From: a virus
Lineage: Duplodnaviria; Heunggongvirae; Uroviricota; Caudoviricetes
Virus record (IMG/VR): IMGVR_UViG_2740892036_000008
Reading direction: 5' to 3' (one strand)
DNA length: 9,196 nucleotides
The notes under the pieces were generated by a model. The model did no database searches, had not been told where the DNA came from, and saw nothing but the letters and a program-made list of their open reading frames with translations. A program made the position numbers and the translations under genes. Shown here piece after piece: positions 1,106-6,679 of the stretch; the stretch's first letter is position 1, and the number at the start of each line of letters is the position of its first letter.

Positions 1106-1567
1106 TCAGAATGGCGTTTCATCGTCGAATGGTGGGCGCTGGTCAAAATCATCAGGGGTGTTATATAGCTCCCATCCCGGCGCGGATTGCGTTTCGTGGC
1201 CCCTGCTGGCTCCACTTGCTTTGACTGACTCGGCCCGCTTCCCGCCGGGGCGTACCGTTCTGGCGCTGATCACGCTGTCGGCTACTACCTGATACCCCTG
1301 CTGTGTACCGCCATCCTTGCCCGCCCACTGATTGACCTGCATCGCTCCGGCAACACTGACTAAATCGCCTTTAACGTGTCCTGCCAGTGCGTCGGCCTGT
1401 TTGCCGAATGCCACCACGCCCAGCCAGAAAGTAACCTCTCCGCCCTCTGCTGCATGGCAAGGCAGTGCCACCGCTAAACGCCCCATTGTCATGCTGCCGC
1501 CGCTGTTTGTCGTTCTGGTCTGGGGATCTGCCACCAGCCGCCCGTAGGCTGATATCTGTGCTGTCAT
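1106..1567 (-). CDS. ssb: single-stranded DNA-binding protein (SSB)
   Basis: 153 aa; ATG at 1567-1565, TGA at 1108-1106. OB-fold-like N-terminal region (GRLVADPQ...FWLGVVAFGK...), low-complexity Gly/Gln-rich linker, and the diagnostic acidic C-terminal tail DFDQRPPFDDETPF (compare E. coli SSB ...DFDDDIPF). Confidence 0.85.
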   Translation of the reverse strand: MTAQISAYGRLVADPQTRTTNSGGSMTMGRLAVALPCHAAEGGEVTFWLGVVAFGKQADALAGHVKGDLVSVAGAMQVNQWAGKDGGTQQGYQVVADSVISARTVRPGGKRAESVKASGASRGHETQSAPGWELYNTPDDFDQRPPFDDETPF

Positions 1568-1667
1568 TTTGCGAATACCTCGAATTATTAGTTTTGCTAA
1601 TGAAGATTGCCCGGCACCGTCTTATTGTGGGACACCTTCGCCAGATTTTTTTGTATATAAACAAAAA

Positions 1668-1933
1668 TAGTGTTGTCTCTGTTGTCTTTGTTGTCTCACG
1701 GCTCTACAGGCCGCGCCACGTCTGGGTTTTGCTGAGACAACATTTGCAATTTCGTGTTGTCTCACCCGGCATAAATGTTGTCTCACTGCCTGCCGGACTA
1801 AAAACACACGTTCGCCCTGTTGTCTCAAAATGGCTAAATGTTGTCTCAATGTTGTCTCAAAAATTAAAATAAAATCCTTATAAATCAATGTAACTTACAA
1901 AATGAGACAACAAAGACAACAGAGACAACACTA
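1668..1933. repeat. iteron cluster: 12 copies of 9-mer TGTTGTCTC bounded by a 31-bp perfect inverted repeat, with AT-rich stretch; candidate replication origin / crr-like site
   Basis: Direct copies at 1671-1679, 1680-1688 (TGTTGTCTT), 1689-1697, 1755-1763, 1776-1784, 1818-1826, 1839-1847, 1850-1858; inverted copies at 1734-1742, 1904-1912, 1913-1921, 1922-1930. 1668-1698 is the exact reverse complement of 1903-1933. Internal direct copies are spaced 21, 42, 21 and 11 bp. 1859-1903 is about 87% A+T. Lies immediately 3' of the primase-helicase gene. Confidence 0.7.
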
Positions 1934-1955: not shown

Positions 1956-4715
1956 TTATTCTTCTGGCTGGCTGCTTTCCTCATCCATGAAGTTGAGCAC
2001 ATAAACGCGAATTTGCCGCCCTCCTTCCCTTACCCGCCCCTGATAACCTCGCCCGCTCGTTGGTGGTGTTAGCATTCCTGCATTCTTGAGAACTTCGGCA
2101 AACTGCCTGACATTAAAACCCCGTGCGATCTCCTGCTCAAATGTTGCCGGGAAGGTGTAGAAAATTATCGGGTCGCCGTCGTGGTTCCCCTTCTTCCTGT
2201 ACCCGGCTAAATCACGGATGGGTAAATCGCGCGGGTCATAACCCAGCGGCGCGAATCTACTCAGCCCATAGGCATTTAAAAACGCCTCCGTCTGCTCGAT
2301 GATCTGCTGGTGCTCTTTGTTCCCCGTGCCGAACTCTTTCAGCCATGCGTTATAGGTGTGCTGTATCGCATCCCGGCACGTTTGAGCATCCCAGCCAGTA
2401 ACCACGCCACCCAGCAGTAAAGCGGCCTCCAGAATGGCGAACCTCGCCCCTACACGGTGAACCTGTTCCCCATAGTCAGCAGGGATTAGACTTCGCCATC
2501 GGGCTTCACACTCACGAACGGCATCAATCGCCTGCTGCTGGTGGTCTGAAAGCCATCTAATCCACTCCCGCCCGGCAGCGCCATGATGGTGCTGGTAAGC
2601 GTCTTTCAGCGCGTCGGCGTGATCTTTCCCTGTCTGGTGCTCATGAAAGCGCACCGCCTTACTCAGCGGGATATTCAGCAGTCGCACCAGTTGCCCCGCT
2701 TTTGTCTTGCGTCCTGCGGTGGCGATGAACGTTTCTAAATCCATTTCCCCGGTGCTGATTGCCACGGTGCGCCAGCGTTTCAGATCCCGGTTGCCTCCTT
2801 CCTTTGCTCCCTGCAATTTCCCCACGCCGTTAAACAGGGCATAGGCAGACTGAGAAACGCTTATCGGGTCTGCGCCCTGTCCGACTTCATCCAGCGGCAT
2901 CAGCCCGTCATTGTGGGCGGCGGCCTCGTTTATCAGCCCCAGCGCCGTCCCATACCACGTCAGGCGCAAGGCATCAGGGTTGCCGTAAAGACTGCTCGCC
3001 ACGTTCTGCGTGGTTGTTTTCCCGGCGCTCGATTGCTCATAAAAATGAATCCCGAATCCGTCACGATCTGCCACCCCGATTAATGGCGCTGCCAGTGCTG
3101 CGGCGATGCCTGTCATCATCGCGTAGTTGCCGTATGCCAGCCGCGCAACACTGTTAAGCCAGCTTTCAGGCGTTCCTGCTACGGTATACCCGGCAGCGGC
3201 TGAACTGCGCCCGCTGAACAAAACAGGCCGCTGAGGTGTGCCGATGATTTCCCCGTCCGGCATGATGTATGCCCCACACTGCCAGCCTGTAGCATGAGCA
3301 ACGCGCCACAATTCACGCGAGCCGCTTCGCTGTAACCAGTCGGCAAGAATCGCCCGTAGGCTGTTTTTCGTTGTGACGTTGACGCCACCAGCTTTCAGGG
3401 TGCGCCAGCCTTCACGCTCGCCAATATCAGCCAGCGGGATAGCCGCTGTTGTCCGTATGCCTGCACCGAATGCCAGCCATGAGATAATAAGATACTGATC
3501 TTTGTCGTCGCGTCCCGTGCCGATAACCTCCAACGGTGAACATAACCAGCTTTCAGCGTTGATGATCTCCCCGCTTTCCTTGTCCACCTTCGGCGTTACC
3601 CAGAAAACGCCATCTTTTCGGCTCTCAATGTGGGGTTTTAGTGGGTCTTTCTCTGGATGGTCAGTTTTACCGCCCTCAATGGCCTGCAATCGTGGTTTAA
3701 CGGCTTCCCCTTGAATCTGGTACATCGAGTCGTTAAACGCAGCCGTAGCGACTTCCAGCCCGTTTTGCTGGTGGTGGTCGTTCCAGTCGGCTTTGTAGTC
3801 TGTCGGCGGCAGTGCCACCCATCCAGCCACGGACAAGGCGGCTTTCTCTGCGGCCTCCCTGCCTGTATTGGCTTCTCCGTTTTGGTGGTGGTCGTTGTCT
3901 GCGGCGATGATTATTTGTGCCTGTGGATACTTCCGGCGCATCACTTCGGCAACGGGTAGCAGGTTGCCCGCGTCAATTGCTGCCACTGCCAGCGCGTCCG
4001 GGCGCATCAGGTGAACTGAAAGGGCCGTCGCCAGCCCCTCGGCAATTAAAACGCTCTGCGGCGATTCTGGCGCGTTTACGGCGTGATATGCCCCGCGCTT
4101 TGCCGAACCCGTCAGAAGTCGCTTTTCTCCATGCGGTGTAATGGTCTGCGCTGCTGCCACTGCGCCGGATTCATCCACCAGCTCCAGCAATAACGAACCA
4201 TCTGGCATTAGCGGGTAATTAAACCCGGTCAGCCCTTTTGATTGCAGGTACTCAGCTTCGCCCTGTATGGCTCTCTGGCGCATTCCGGCATACAGACGGG
4301 AAAACGTAGCCCGGCGCTGCTCTGCGTCCTCTGCGGCCTTTTTCTGTCGCTCCTGCTCATGCCGCTGGCGGTCTGCGGCTAACTGCGTCTGTCTCTGGCT
4401 GGCAGCGTCTGGTGCTGGTTCTGCGGCCCGGTAATCAATACCCAGCACATCAGCGGCAAGGTGCGCCGCCTCCGTGGTGTCGCAGTTGTTAACCCGTTTG
4501 ATTAAATCCAGCCCATCGCCCGCGCCGCACTGATTGCAGATAAAGCTACCTCGCCCGTTGTCGTCGAATCTGAAACGGTCTTTCCCACCACATGCAGGGC
4601 AGGGGGCATGACGGCGCGATGAATCAGGAACGTCGATAGACAGGCCAGCCAGCACATAAGGCCATTTACCAGCGGCGGCGCTGGTCACTTCGCGGATAAT
4701 GTCGATATTACGCAT
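1956..4715 (-). CDS. primase-helicase, P4 alpha-like (zinc-ribbon primase + Toprim + P-loop helicase)
   Basis: 919 aa; ATG at 4715-4713 preceded by AGGGAGG 8 nt upstream; TAA at 1958-1956. N-terminal zinc ribbon CPACGGKDRFRFDDNGRGSFICNQCGAGDG; Toprim-like acidic motif IIIAADNDHHQNGEANTGREAAEKAA; Walker A EQSSAGKTT in the C-terminal half. Confidence 0.9.
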   Translation of the reverse strand: MRNIDIIREVTSAAAGKWPYVLAGLSIDVPDSSRRHAPCPACGGKDRFRFDDNGRGSFICNQCGAGDGLDLIKRVNNCDTTEAAHLAADVLGIDYRAAEPAPDAASQRQTQLAADRQRHEQERQKKAAEDAEQRRATFSRLYAGMRQRAIQGEAEYLQSKGLTGFNYPLMPDGSLLLELVDESGAVAAAQTITPHGEKRLLTGSAKRGAYHAVNAPESPQSVLIAEGLATALSVHLMRPDALAVAAIDAGNLLPVAEVMRRKYPQAQIIIAADNDHHQNGEANTGREAAEKAALSVAGWVALPPTDYKADWNDHHQQNGLEVATAAFNDSMYQIQGEAVKPRLQAIEGGKTDHPEKDPLKPHIESRKDGVFWVTPKVDKESGEIINAESWLCSPLEVIGTGRDDKDQYLIISWLAFGAGIRTTAAIPLADIGEREGWRTLKAGGVNVTTKNSLRAILADWLQRSGSRELWRVAHATGWQCGAYIMPDGEIIGTPQRPVLFSGRSSAAAGYTVAGTPESWLNSVARLAYGNYAMMTGIAAALAAPLIGVADRDGFGIHFYEQSSAGKTTTQNVASSLYGNPDALRLTWYGTALGLINEAAAHNDGLMPLDEVGQGADPISVSQSAYALFNGVGKLQGAKEGGNRDLKRWRTVAISTGEMDLETFIATAGRKTKAGQLVRLLNIPLSKAVRFHEHQTGKDHADALKDAYQHHHGAAGREWIRWLSDHQQQAIDAVRECEARWRSLIPADYGEQVHRVGARFAILEAALLLGGVVTGWDAQTCRDAIQHTYNAWLKEFGTGNKEHQQIIEQTEAFLNAYGLSRFAPLGYDPRDLPIRDLAGYRKKGNHDGDPIIFYTFPATFEQEIARGFNVRQFAEVLKNAGMLTPPTSGRGYQGRVREGGRQIRVYVLNFMDEESSQPEE

Positions 4716-5616: not shown

Positions 5617-5792
5617 GCTGCCACCTCACGAATGCGGGTAATCTGGATGTGGGAAAGGCGTTCATTTCTGGCCTGATTTAGCGCCTCAGCTTTGGCGCTG
5701 ATCGCGCTGCGGGCGTCAACGATATAAACGAACTCGACTAATTCGCCGCTCCGGGCGGTGGCGCATCCTGCAACACGGAAGTAATTAAGCAT
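5613..5792 (-). CDS. hypothetical small protein (59 aa from ATG; 69 aa if the TTG at 5822 is used)
   Basis: ATG at 5792-5790 preceded by AGGGGG 5 nt upstream; overlaps the Icd-like stop by 8 nt. The ORF-track start at 5822 is TTG and lies inside the Icd-like CDS, so the ATG is preferred. Confidence 0.45.
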   Translation of the reverse strand: MLNYFRVAGCATARSGELVEFVYIVDARSAISAKAEALNQARNERLSHIQITRIREVAA

Positions 5793-5976
5793 GTGCGCCC
5801 CCTGTGCGAATACGTCCGGCAAAAAAGCAAACGTGATCCCGCGCCAGAATGCGGCGGGCTTCCTGCTCAGTTTCTGCGGCGATATGGTGAATTTTGGCGG
5901 TAATTGTCGGCATGTCGCGGCGAACGGCTGCGATTAACCAGATAAATTGTGGATTTTGGGTAGGGGTAGTAGCCAT
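5785..5976 (-). CDS. Icd-like host cell-division inhibitor family small protein (63 aa)
   Basis: ATG at 5976-5974 with GAGG 8 nt upstream; TAA at 5787-5785. Sequence MATTPTQNPQFIWLIAAVRRD...FAGRIRTGGAHA resembles the short Icd-like proteins found ahead of primase genes in P4-like elements (from memory). Only the C-terminal 63 codons of the 257-aa ORF in the track are taken as coding. Confidence 0.6.
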   Translation of the reverse strand: MATTPTQNPQFIWLIAAVRRDMPTITAKIHHIAAETEQEARRILARDHVCFFAGRIRTGGAHA

Positions 5977-6496
5977 GATGGCAGCCTCTATACAGTGAAT
6001 TTTGAATTCACCACCAAGAGACGCCAATCTCAGACTGGTGGTGAGCTGAACAAGGTTGGCGTAACCGGCCTGTATAGACACCGGCCTTCCTTTCGGAAGC
6101 CTCATCCAGCCCACCATAATTTGGGTGCGCAGGAATTTTGCCGACAAAAAAACACGCTTAGTGCGTGTCGGCACTATACAGGTTATCGGGACGCCAATCC
6201 CGGCACCTGATTTTGCAGGTGCGCTATAACCATAAACCGGGTTGGCGATAGTCGGCAAGCCCTTTTTTATGGACTCGCAAAACTCACCTTCGCGCGTGCG
6301 CGTACTGGTCGCAAAACTCGAAAAAAACTTAGGATTTATTAGGATTCGCAGCCCAATTCTCAGCCCAGAAAACGCCTCTAAAATGTCGTCATTTGTCGCA
6401 ACGGCGCGGCGATGAATGTCAGGTTTTGACAGGTTGTAAGGGTTAACATTTGTTAACAGGCTAGCCAGATTAAAGGCTTCTTTCTGGGCGGCAGGT
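5977..6496 (-). ncRNA. candidate structured leader / immunity-type antisense RNA region (C4/CI-like, boundaries unknown)
   Basis: 520 bp with no convincing ORF start on the transcribed strand. 9-bp perfect inverted repeat TCACCACCA/TGGTGGTGA (6008-6016 / 6036-6044, 19-nt loop); minus-strand hairpin CUUCC-GAAA-GGAAG (6086-6099); terminator-like hairpin at 6140-6172; tandem TTAGGATT (6329-6336, 6339-6346); paired GTTAAC palindromes (6442-6447, 6452-6457). Position ahead of an icd-like gene matches P1 immI (c4-icd-ant) and the P4 CI RNA leader. Confidence 0.3.
6140..6172 (-). terminator. intrinsic-terminator-like hairpin with U-tract inside the leader
   Basis: On the minus strand: stem ACACGC/GCGUGU (6163-6168 pairs with 6152-6157), 5-nt loop, followed by six U (forward A-run 6146-6151); flanked by a further inverted repeat GCCGAC/GTCGGC (6140-6145 / 6167-6172). 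About 170 nt upstream of the Icd-like start. Confidence 0.4.
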
Positions 6497-6679
6497 TCAT
6501 TCAGTATCACGGCGCACCTCCACGAACTCCTTAACGAATCTCTCCAAAGGCTGAACACATGGCGACTGATAGCCCTCGCGGTAAAAGGTCACTCGGTTAT
6601 GCTCGACGCGCTGTACGGTCACTACAGCCCCGTGCGAATCCTTGTAACGGCTTCCCGGCATCGGATTATGGTTACGCAT
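6497..6679 (-). CDS. small protein (60 aa), DUF4222-like (tentative)
   Basis: ATG at 6679-6677 with GGAGG 6 nt upstream; overlaps the antirepressor stop by 8 nt; TGA at 6499-6497. Pattern YKDSHGAVVTVQRVEHNRVTFYREGY resembles small prophage DUF4222 proteins as I recall them (not searched). Confidence 0.5.
   Translation of the reverse strand: MRNHNPMPGSRYKDSHGAVVTVQRVEHNRVTFYREGYQSPCVQPLERFVKEFVEVRRDTE

Follow-up and report, generated by a model that had tools for sequence, protein, structure and literature searches.

A putative replication origin of opposed 9-bp iterons next to the Toprim-DUF927 primase-helicase gene of a Gram-negative phage-inducible chromosomal island

Replicons of phage-inducible islands and their relatives

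Fillol-Salom et al. (2018, PMC6092414) placed the origin of Gram-negative phage-inducible chromosomal islands (PICIs) directly 3′ of the gene for the replication initiator; in their experiments, a temperature-sensitive plasmid was maintained by a pri-rep-ori segment of the island EcCICFT073 but not by segments from which rep or ori had been deleted. Similarly, the C-terminal winged-helix domains of the Rep proteins of SaPIs bind 6–12 short iterons just downstream of rep, these iterons have opposed orientations around a central AT-rich region, and the SaPI Reps need no ATP to bind and melt DNA and are self-loading (PMC9371898). In P4, likewise, the alpha protein is a multifunctional primase-helicase-origin-binding protein; P4 replication requires both an ori and a separate crr (4291–4590, NC_001609), which follows the alpha gene directly and contains short iterons of both orientations. 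Iterons of plasmids of the RepE/RepA/pi class are direct repeats of ~17–22 bp, and the initiators of these plasmids are themselves not helicases and require DnaA/DnaB/DnaC. We know of no iteron origin adjoining the SCCmec helicase gene cch (5DGK). Here, we describe an array of 9-bp repeats in a 9,196-bp stretch of DNA, which we refer to as the window and which was analysed over its whole length, and compare this array with the replicons above.

The repeat array and the island that carries it

The 9-mer TGTTGTCTC (allowing at most one mismatch) is present in 12 copies in the window and every one of them lies within 1671–1930. Among 200 dinucleotide-preserving shuffles of the sequence, the mean count was 1.7 and the largest 6, and 0/200 reached 12. 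Eight copies are on the plus strand (at 1671, 1680, 1689, 1755, 1776, 1818, 1839, and 1850) and four on the minus strand (at 1734, 1904, 1913, and 1922). The distances between the five internal direct copies are 21, 42, 21, and 11 bp; the 31 nt at 1668–1698 are the exact reverse complement of 1903–1933, and the inverted repeat grows to 54 nt if 80% complementarity is allowed. An earlier note on this DNA had claimed twelve such 9-mers, perfect 31-bp inverted-repeat ends, the same internal spacing, and a 45-bp stretch with 87% A+T, and all four agree with our counts and measurements (86.7% A+T at 1859–1903 for the last). The flipped internal copy at 1734–1742, the twelfth, was included in the count of that note but is absent from its description. 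The array fills the gap between the stop of the 919-aa ORF encoding the fused primase-helicase, which we refer to as Pri-Rep, and the start of the SSB ORF, both on the minus strand, and begins 25 bp past the pri-rep stop codon; the RefSeq annotation has no gene in 1568–1955. The features of this region are, from the pri-rep gene outward:

1903–1933, minus strand: gene-proximal tandem triplet of 9-bp iterons (1904–1912, 1913–1921, and 1922–1930), one arm of the 31-bp inverted repeat; the middle copy has one mismatch
1859–1903, no strand: A+T-rich spacer, proposed DNA unwinding element
1876–1888: conserved spacer motif CCTTATAAATCAA, which reads TTGATTTATAAGG on the gene strand
1818–1858, plus strand: three iterons opposed to the proximal triplet (copies at 1818, 1839, and 1850), with spacings of 21 and 11 bp
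1734–1784, no strand: inner part of the extension, with direct iterons at 1755 and 1776 (plus strand) and the flipped copy at 1734–1742 (minus strand)
1668–1698, plus strand: outer part of the extension, which is the far tandem triplet (copies at 1671, 1680, and 1689) and the second arm of the 31-bp inverted repeat
1654–1670, minus strand: conserved motif CTATTTTTGTTTATATA (gene strand), directly past the far triplet
1106–1567, minus strand: ssb gene (Pfam SSB), with which the replication module goes on downstream of the proposed origin

With regard to helical phasing, tandem 9-bp sites turn by ~309 degrees per site, and sites 11, 21, or 42 bp apart share one face of the helix. From this phasing, we speculate that the two sides of the spacer may use different binding geometries. 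By-eye inspection of the A+T-rich spacer gave no match to the IHF and DnaA-box consensus sequences.

Thirty-four complete E. coli genomes contain a chromosomal segment identical to the window. In strain STN0717-20, this segment lies within an island of ~13 kb between yicC and dinD, the genes of which are all on one strand in the order int, a hypothetical gene, an AlpA-type HTH gene, a second hypothetical gene, AntA, DUF4222, Ash/Icd-like, three small ORFs, Toprim-DUF927, the array, ssb, and perC. Judged by this gene order and by its attachment locus, the island is a Gram-negative PICI: yicC-dinD is a listed PICI attachment locus (Fillol-Salom et al. 2018, supplementary table, PMC6092414) and perC is a typical PICI accessory gene (PMC6092414). 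Islands of this type measure about 8–15 kb and carry integrase, alpA, and pri(-rep) genes that share one direction of transcription. Moreover, C4/isrK-type antisense RNA motifs, which were reported for several such PICIs (PMC10111431), are present within the window inside the Ash/Icd ORF. Capsid and terS genes are absent from the annotated island genes, and P22-like ejection genes are present in sister islands. The published att core of EcCIRM13514, GAGCAGATTCAA, was not found around the island and, therefore, the island ends are approximate. The full array occupies a single place per genome in 33/33 E. coli genomes, always beside the primase gene, and is therefore not a dispersed mobile repeat. 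In blastn searches, the array had no match among phage records and, against sister islands, only positions 251–364 of the intergenic query (window 1818–1931) aligned.

The island and its array closely resemble the Gram-negative PICIs, which are of the same island type (int, alpA, pri-rep, ori, ssb, perC), have their ori directly 3′ of pri-rep, and, like the window, have two opposed iteron sets around an AT-rich region and inverted outer tandem repeats. In the window, the minus-strand triplet and the three plus-strand copies are the two sets on either side of the 45-bp A+T-rich stretch. The order pri-rep, ori, ssb, perC is shared with EcCICFT073, EcCI042, and EcCIRM13514. The reference oris of EcCICFT073 (L067:3996–4285; iteron GTCTACC) and of EcCIRM13514 (L068:9054–9320; iteron TGTTCACC), the latter from an island with the same yicC-dinD integration site as the window island, both begin past the stop with tandem copies, continue with an AT-rich stretch and inverted copies, and end in an opposed outer tandem pair. 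Because both reference oris have mirror ends, such ends are a family trait and not a peculiarity of the window. The initiators of EcCICFT073 and EcCIRM13514, in contrast, are of the D5_N/DUF5906/Pox_D5 types and unrelated in sequence to the window protein; likewise, the five reference E. coli PICIs that we checked have D5_N/DUF5906/Pox_D5 or RepA-like AAA_25 initiators together with other iterons, and the combination of Toprim and DUF927 was found in 0/5.

The differences from the SaPI replicon (SaPIbov1 Rep, 8TCH; SaPI5 PriRep5) are larger: whereas SaPI iterons are penta- or hexanucleotides, those considered here have 9–10 bp; the primase domain belongs to the Zn-ribbon/Toprim (P4-alpha-like) type; the host is a Gram-negative bacterium; and the identity of the C-terminal domain to that of SaPI Rep is only ~15%. 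P4 shares with the window island an N-terminal primase domain that is 35% identical, short iterons in both orientations directly downstream of the primase gene, and a C4/isrK-type immunity RNA. However, the window island has a single iteron cluster with the iteron TGTTGTCTC, whereas the P4 iteron is TGTTCAC(C/A), with type-1 repeats TGTTCACC; the match to P4 alpha ends at aa 331 of the window protein and the helicase parts do not align; in Pfam, the window protein matches DUF927 but neither D5_N nor Pox_D5; and the island is without the P4 genes sid, psu, and delta. Because the helicase is DUF927/SaPIbov1-Rep-like and the island has one iteron cluster instead of a separate ori and crr, P4, to which the array had previously been compared, is not the apt family; the PICI/SaPI pri-rep-ori replicon fits better and only the N-terminal primase domain is P4-alpha-like. 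Finally, the window differs from iteron plasmids in that its 9-bp sites form opposed sets and its initiator is itself a primase-helicase.

Related loci, iteron classes, and the C-terminal domain of Pri-Rep

Scanning one genome per bacterial species, we obtained 63 loci encoding relatives of the 919-aa protein (52–96% identity) in Escherichia, Enterobacter, Klebsiella, Kosakonia, Pantoea, Erwinia, Serratia, Pectobacterium, Yersinia, and other genera. In 60 of these 63 loci (Enterobacterales), an array with a common plan lies directly past the helicase stop; among the three loci without an array, two have truncated genes and the third encodes the most distant relative (52% identity). Of the 60 array loci, 58 have a proximal tandem doublet or triplet between +21 and +56 from the stop codon and two, L019 and L048, have a single proximal copy that can be recognised, and the array starts ~22–29 bp after the stop in all but two array loci. 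This is followed by a spacer, which is 44 bp long in most loci (range 43–67), has a mean A+T content of 78% over the 60 loci, and has at its centre the motif TTG(A/T)TTTATAAGG, conserved across iteron classes A–D (see below), and then by three opposed copies 11 and 21 bp apart. The core of triplet, spacer, and three opposed copies, which corresponds to window 1818–1933, is thus common to the 60 loci, and it is kept whether ssb, P22-like ejection genes, or other cargo lie downstream.

Copies beyond the core are present in half of the array loci (30/60, including the window) and the other 30 have the core only. The twelve-copy plan of the window recurs in ~20 loci of classes A to D: past the core, there are copies at +42 and +21, a flipped copy ~22 bp on, and a mirror triplet ~44 bp further, with the inner extension positions (+171, +192, and +213 after the stop) occupied in these loci. 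Loci of classes E and F have the mirror triplet at the end and a different inner part, and a few class B loci also differ inside; L061 and a few others have ten copies because of a longer proximal run and are without a mirror triplet. Because ssb is downstream in 12/30 loci with the extension and in 10/30 without it, the presence of the extension is independent of ssb. The symmetric triplet ends, which had been considered unusual, are shown by up to 30 of the 60 related loci, and the reference PICI oris have inverted terminal doublets.

The spacing of the copies is constant, whereas the iteron 9-mer itself varies by clade, with at least seven classes:

Class A: iteron GTTGTCTCA; the window and 5 other loci
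Class B: iteron GTTGGTTCA; 40 loci
Class C: iteron GTCGGTTCA; 5 loci
Class D: iteron GTCGGGTA; 1 locus
Class E and class E2: iterons ACGGGTTA and GTGGGTTA; 3 loci and 1 locus
Class F: iteron CTTATCCCA; 3 loci
Class G: iteron GGTCGGTT; 1 locus

The copies within one locus, whether 6 or 12, share one variant, and such concerted change is the pattern expected of sites that are read by a single co-evolving protein. The candidate for this protein is Pri-Rep, the coding features of which are:

1956–4715, minus strand: pri-rep gene, 919 aa, with Pfam matches to a Zn-ribbon (aa 34–69), a Toprim primase (aa 222–319), and a DUF927 helicase (aa 367–645)
1959–2270, minus strand: C-terminal winged-helix coding region (aa 816–919), proposed iteron reader
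2025–2039, minus strand: codons for aa 893–897 (G-R-V-R-E), proposed iteron-specificity determinant from the alignment of class A with class B

Pri-Rep matches the PHROG 'DNA primase'. Its residues 7–331 are 35.5% identical to P4 alpha (E 2e-36), residues 471–816 match SaPIbov1 Rep by sequence (8tch_A; E 2.9e-7), and the helicase core has a sequence match to the SCCmec helicase Cch (5dgk_A; E 0.0046). DUF927 is followed by a helical linker and then by a predicted C-terminal winged-helix domain (~aa 816–911). In profile searches against PDB sequences and Pfam, the last 120 residues had no meaningful match. A first structure model of aa 700–919, generated with 23 near-identical sequences, had a mean pLDDT of 52.6, with values <50 across the C-terminal domain, and was not used for the fold search. 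A second model, generated with an alignment of 44 diverse fragments from a profile search, had a mean pLDDT of 81.8; here, the C-terminal domain is modeled as a winged helix and its best structural match is the SaPIbov1 Rep initiator-helicase, with modest Foldseek E-values (best 9e-3). The model contains a C-terminal beta-hairpin ('wing'), the strands of which are model residues 93–98 and 101–110, and residues 893–897 of Pri-Rep fall on the first of these strands.

We aligned 6 class-A and 31 class-B full-length proteins and identified the columns in which the residue sets of the two classes do not overlap. There are seven such columns among ~920, and five of the seven are contiguous at aa 893–897, where class-A proteins read GRV-RE and class-B proteins RKSPR[I/V]. 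Each iteron class is paired with a wing motif of its own, with 0 discordant cases among 57 loci; in addition, one class-B-like protein has RKTPR for RKSPR and is paired with GTCGGTTCA for GTTGGTTCA. Compared with the window protein, the protein of L015 has 75% identity in its first 800 aa, which is below the N-terminal identity of many class-B proteins, and 86% identity in its last 60 aa, and its locus has the class-A iteron; therefore, C-terminus and putative origin move as one module. Similarly, the proteins of L054 and L059 have no Toprim or zinc-ribbon match and have kept DUF927 and the C-terminal domain, and their loci have arrays of 11–12 copies; the array therefore tracks the helicase and C-terminal part and not the primase part.

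Based on the co-variation of hairpin and iteron, we propose the C-terminal domain as a candidate for the specific iteron binder. Because the co-varying codons are only 100–300 bp from the iterons, linkage or module exchange could give the same correlation without protein-DNA contact. The earlier note had also asked for the conservation of the 9-mer and of its phasing in related elements; the phasing is kept and the 9-mer itself is absent from most homologues. Because other 9-mers occupy the same positions and are matched by a change in the C-terminal hairpin, the missing TGTTGTCTC refutes nothing; judged from these sequences, the replacement of the 9-mer together with the matching hairpin change rather strengthens the reading of the array as an origin.

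Putative origin function, rival explanations, and implications

We conclude that the array is the putative vegetative replication origin (ori) of a Gram-negative PICI, to which we assign a probability of roughly 0.85. What is established here and carries this conclusion is the anatomy of the array, its conservation, the iteron changes that accompany changes in Pri-Rep, the fold predicted for its C-terminal domain, and the homology of the helicase. Thus, comparative, structural, and literature evidence supports the previous suggestion of an iteron origin with an unwinding element that is read by the C-terminal part of the primase-helicase, and the assignment is a putative one.

Binding, melting, loading, and priming are modeled on the SaPI Reps and the tested EcCICFT073 replicon. 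Upon induction, the fused primase-helicase Pri-Rep would be produced and its winged-helix C-terminal domains would bind the 9-bp iterons, one Pri-Rep oligomer on the gene-proximal triplet and a second on the three opposed copies beyond the 44–45-bp spacer, which sit one and two helical turns apart. Both assemblies would then open the spacer and, with no dedicated loader, place themselves on the single strands as helicase rings, after which the Toprim domain would prime, host polymerase would extend, and the SSB of the island would coat the single strands. The six further iterons (1668–1784) form an optional extension, which probably serves either cooperative loading or the control of copy number or of downstream transcription; this extension may act as a P4 crr-like site or may control a promoter suggested by the conserved CTATTTtTGcTTATATA motif past the far triplet. 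The core model does not account for the role of the six-copy extension.

Several other functions were weighed against an origin. Plasmid initiators often autoregulate via inverted repeats, and the array might be mainly a transcriptional operator by which Pri-Rep or another regulator controls ssb, perC, and cargo. The conserved CTATTTtTGcTTATATA-like motif past the far triplet could be a promoter element in such an arrangement; CTATTTTTGTTTATATA at 1654–1670 may be a candidate promoter element for the downstream genes, and loci of classes A, B, C, D, E2, and F have CTATTTTTGTTTATATA-like motifs past this triplet. However, a scan of 1400–2200 for consensus promoters and terminators yielded no more than shuffled sequences do, with no match on the gene strand, the core is kept regardless of the downstream genes, the extension occurs independently of ssb, and the layout agrees with tested PICI and SaPI origins. 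We therefore regard an operator as improbable as the main function, and consider a secondary regulatory role for the extension, beside origin function, as possible. That the array is a cis enhancer like P4 crr, with initiation at a separate origin elsewhere in the island, is less probable still: a second iteron cluster was found neither in the window nor in the 33-kb locus L001, where scattered single near-matches are at chance level, a conserved AT-rich element lies within the array itself, flanked by inverted iteron sets, and the helicase and C-terminal domain are SaPI-Rep-like and not P4-like. This is so even though P4 crr lies directly downstream of alpha and has type-1 iterons in both orientations with ori kilobases away, and even though the N-terminal primase domain resembles that of P4 alpha.

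The earlier note had also raised a partition-like role of the ends, and clustered short repeats in both orientations are known in parS/parC sites. Nevertheless, a partition (centromere-like) or packaging (pac/cos) site is very unlikely given that the window's ten main ORFs and the annotated island genes include no ParA/ParB-like or terminase gene, that the repeats co-vary with the helicase C-terminal domain and with no other protein, and that the position and the AT-rich centre suit an origin. Least plausible is that the 266-bp unit represents a miniature transposable element or, alternatively, a structure-forming palindrome that has nothing to do with the primase, as might be suggested by its perfect 31-bp terminal inverted repeats and by its single strand, which folds far better than shuffles (z = −9). 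This fold score is a trivial consequence of the inverted repeat; moreover, the arms of the inverted repeat consist of the iteron and the strong fold is not kept in core-only loci. A miniature element is also at odds with a unit that is at the same position in all 33 E. coli genomes holding the full array, and with the half of the related loci that are without the far arm and yet have kept the core. Because the array is single-copy per genome, we rejected the miniature transposable element.

The reading as a replication origin places the array in a kind of origin that is already known, the PICI ori, and the version with the Toprim-DUF927 allele and the TGTTGTCTC iteron is newly described; in a search of the literature as text, which covers publications such as PMC6092414 apart from its origin figure, we found no description of this combination. 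Tentatively, and at somewhat under even odds, we suggest for the observations taken together that PICI replicons of the Toprim-DUF927 type fall into seven or more specificity (incompatibility) classes, that the wing patch at aa 893–897 would be sufficient to retarget the initiator between 9-bp iterons, and that the six-iteron extension would be a separable cis module outside the minimal origin, functioning as a crr-like enhancer, a copy-control/handcuffing site, or a Rep-controlled promoter.

The array places the predicted origin of a widespread and uncharacterised PICI replicon allele, the Toprim-DUF927 Pri-Rep, which is present in Escherichia, Klebsiella, Enterobacter, Salmonella, Citrobacter, Serratia, Pantoea, Pectobacterium, and other genera, and provides a minimal core for cloning (window 1818–1933). 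The picture of how such satellites replicate is unchanged, and the most useful by-products are the dissection of core versus extension and the five-residue specificity candidate. The related loci represent a natural experiment on initiator-origin specificity, in which the architecture and spacing are constant, the 9-mers vary, and each change goes together with a very small candidate determinant in the protein. Iteron specificity could serve to build orthogonal replicons, and the specificity classes could explain how several PICIs are present per cell without cross-firing.

Motifs in and beside the iteron array

Two short motifs accompany the iterons of the array:

window 1876-1888: CCTTATAAATCAA (gene-strand reading, TTGATTTATAAGG), at the centre of the AT-rich spacer
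window 1654-1670, gene strand: CTATTTTTGTTTATATA, directly after the far triplet

The spacer motif is kept across iteron classes A-D, the clade-specific 9-mers, and on inspection by eye matches neither the IHF nor the DnaA-box consensus; a host factor may bind there, or it may serve for priming. In several iteron classes, full arrays likewise have motifs resembling CTATTTTTGTTTATATA after the far triplet, and the window copy may be a promoter element for the downstream genes. Within each tandem triplet the off-consensus copy is the middle one (window 1680-1688 and 1913-1921, TGTTGTCTT); numerous class-B loci have GTTAGTTCA at this position of the triplet. Conservation of a deliberately weaker central site seems likely.

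Variation among related loci

Two sister islands at the same site, yicC-dinD (L002:4983-8552 and L003:2336-8531), each have an 80-87% identical primase-helicase (Pri-Rep) and a class-B core origin, downstream of which genes for P22-like DNA ejection proteins and a lytic transglycosylase replace ssb-perC, a cargo that is unusual for a satellite. The relatives encoded at L059:3491-5704 and L054:3572-5683 (737 and 703 aa, respectively) have DUF927 and the C-terminal domain; Toprim and the zinc ribbon are not detectable in either protein, and despite this both loci have kept arrays of 11-12 copies. Judged from these sequences, the N-terminal domain of Pri-Rep relatives appears to be exchangeable.

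Individual loci depart from the usual layout. At L061, the proximal iteron cluster, which lies between +28 and +90 counted from the primase stop, has grown to seven perfect tandem 9-bp copies versus the usual three. At L034:4001-7887, the primase-helicase match covers 3.9 kb versus 2.76 kb and, therefore, an insertion of about 1.1 kb seems to be present in the gene. Two members of the locus set are probably contamination, i.e. an Enterobacter-like island within an assembly labelled Chryseobacterium (L008) and a 394-bp contig from a Paenibacillus assembly with 96% protein-level identity to the query (L066).

RNA immunity module and far end of the island

Three segments match Rfam families above the gathering score, all within an Ash/Icd-like ORF (5785-6558):

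window 6034-6121, minus strand: C4 antisense RNA
window 6147-6222, minus strand: isrK
window 6183-6235, minus strand: c4 a1/b1 target

Together (6034-6235, minus strand), they constitute a predicted P4/P1-type RNA immunity module inside a PICI. The far end of the island holds two adjacent dinD genes (L001:8250-10240), of which one may be island-borne, or the target may be duplicated; the published att core for the yicC-dinD site was not found around this island.

An iteron common to EcCIRM13514 and P4

EcCIRM13514 of E. coli RM13514, a reference PICI integrated at the same yicC-dinD site, encodes a D5_N/DUF5906/Pox_D5 primase and has the iteron TGTTCACC in its origin (L068:9054-9320). This iteron is identical to the octamer annotated in phage P4 as 'ori type 1 repeat' (crr, L069:4291-4590). 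On the strength of this identity, we suggest that a PICI and P4 may have origin specificity in common.
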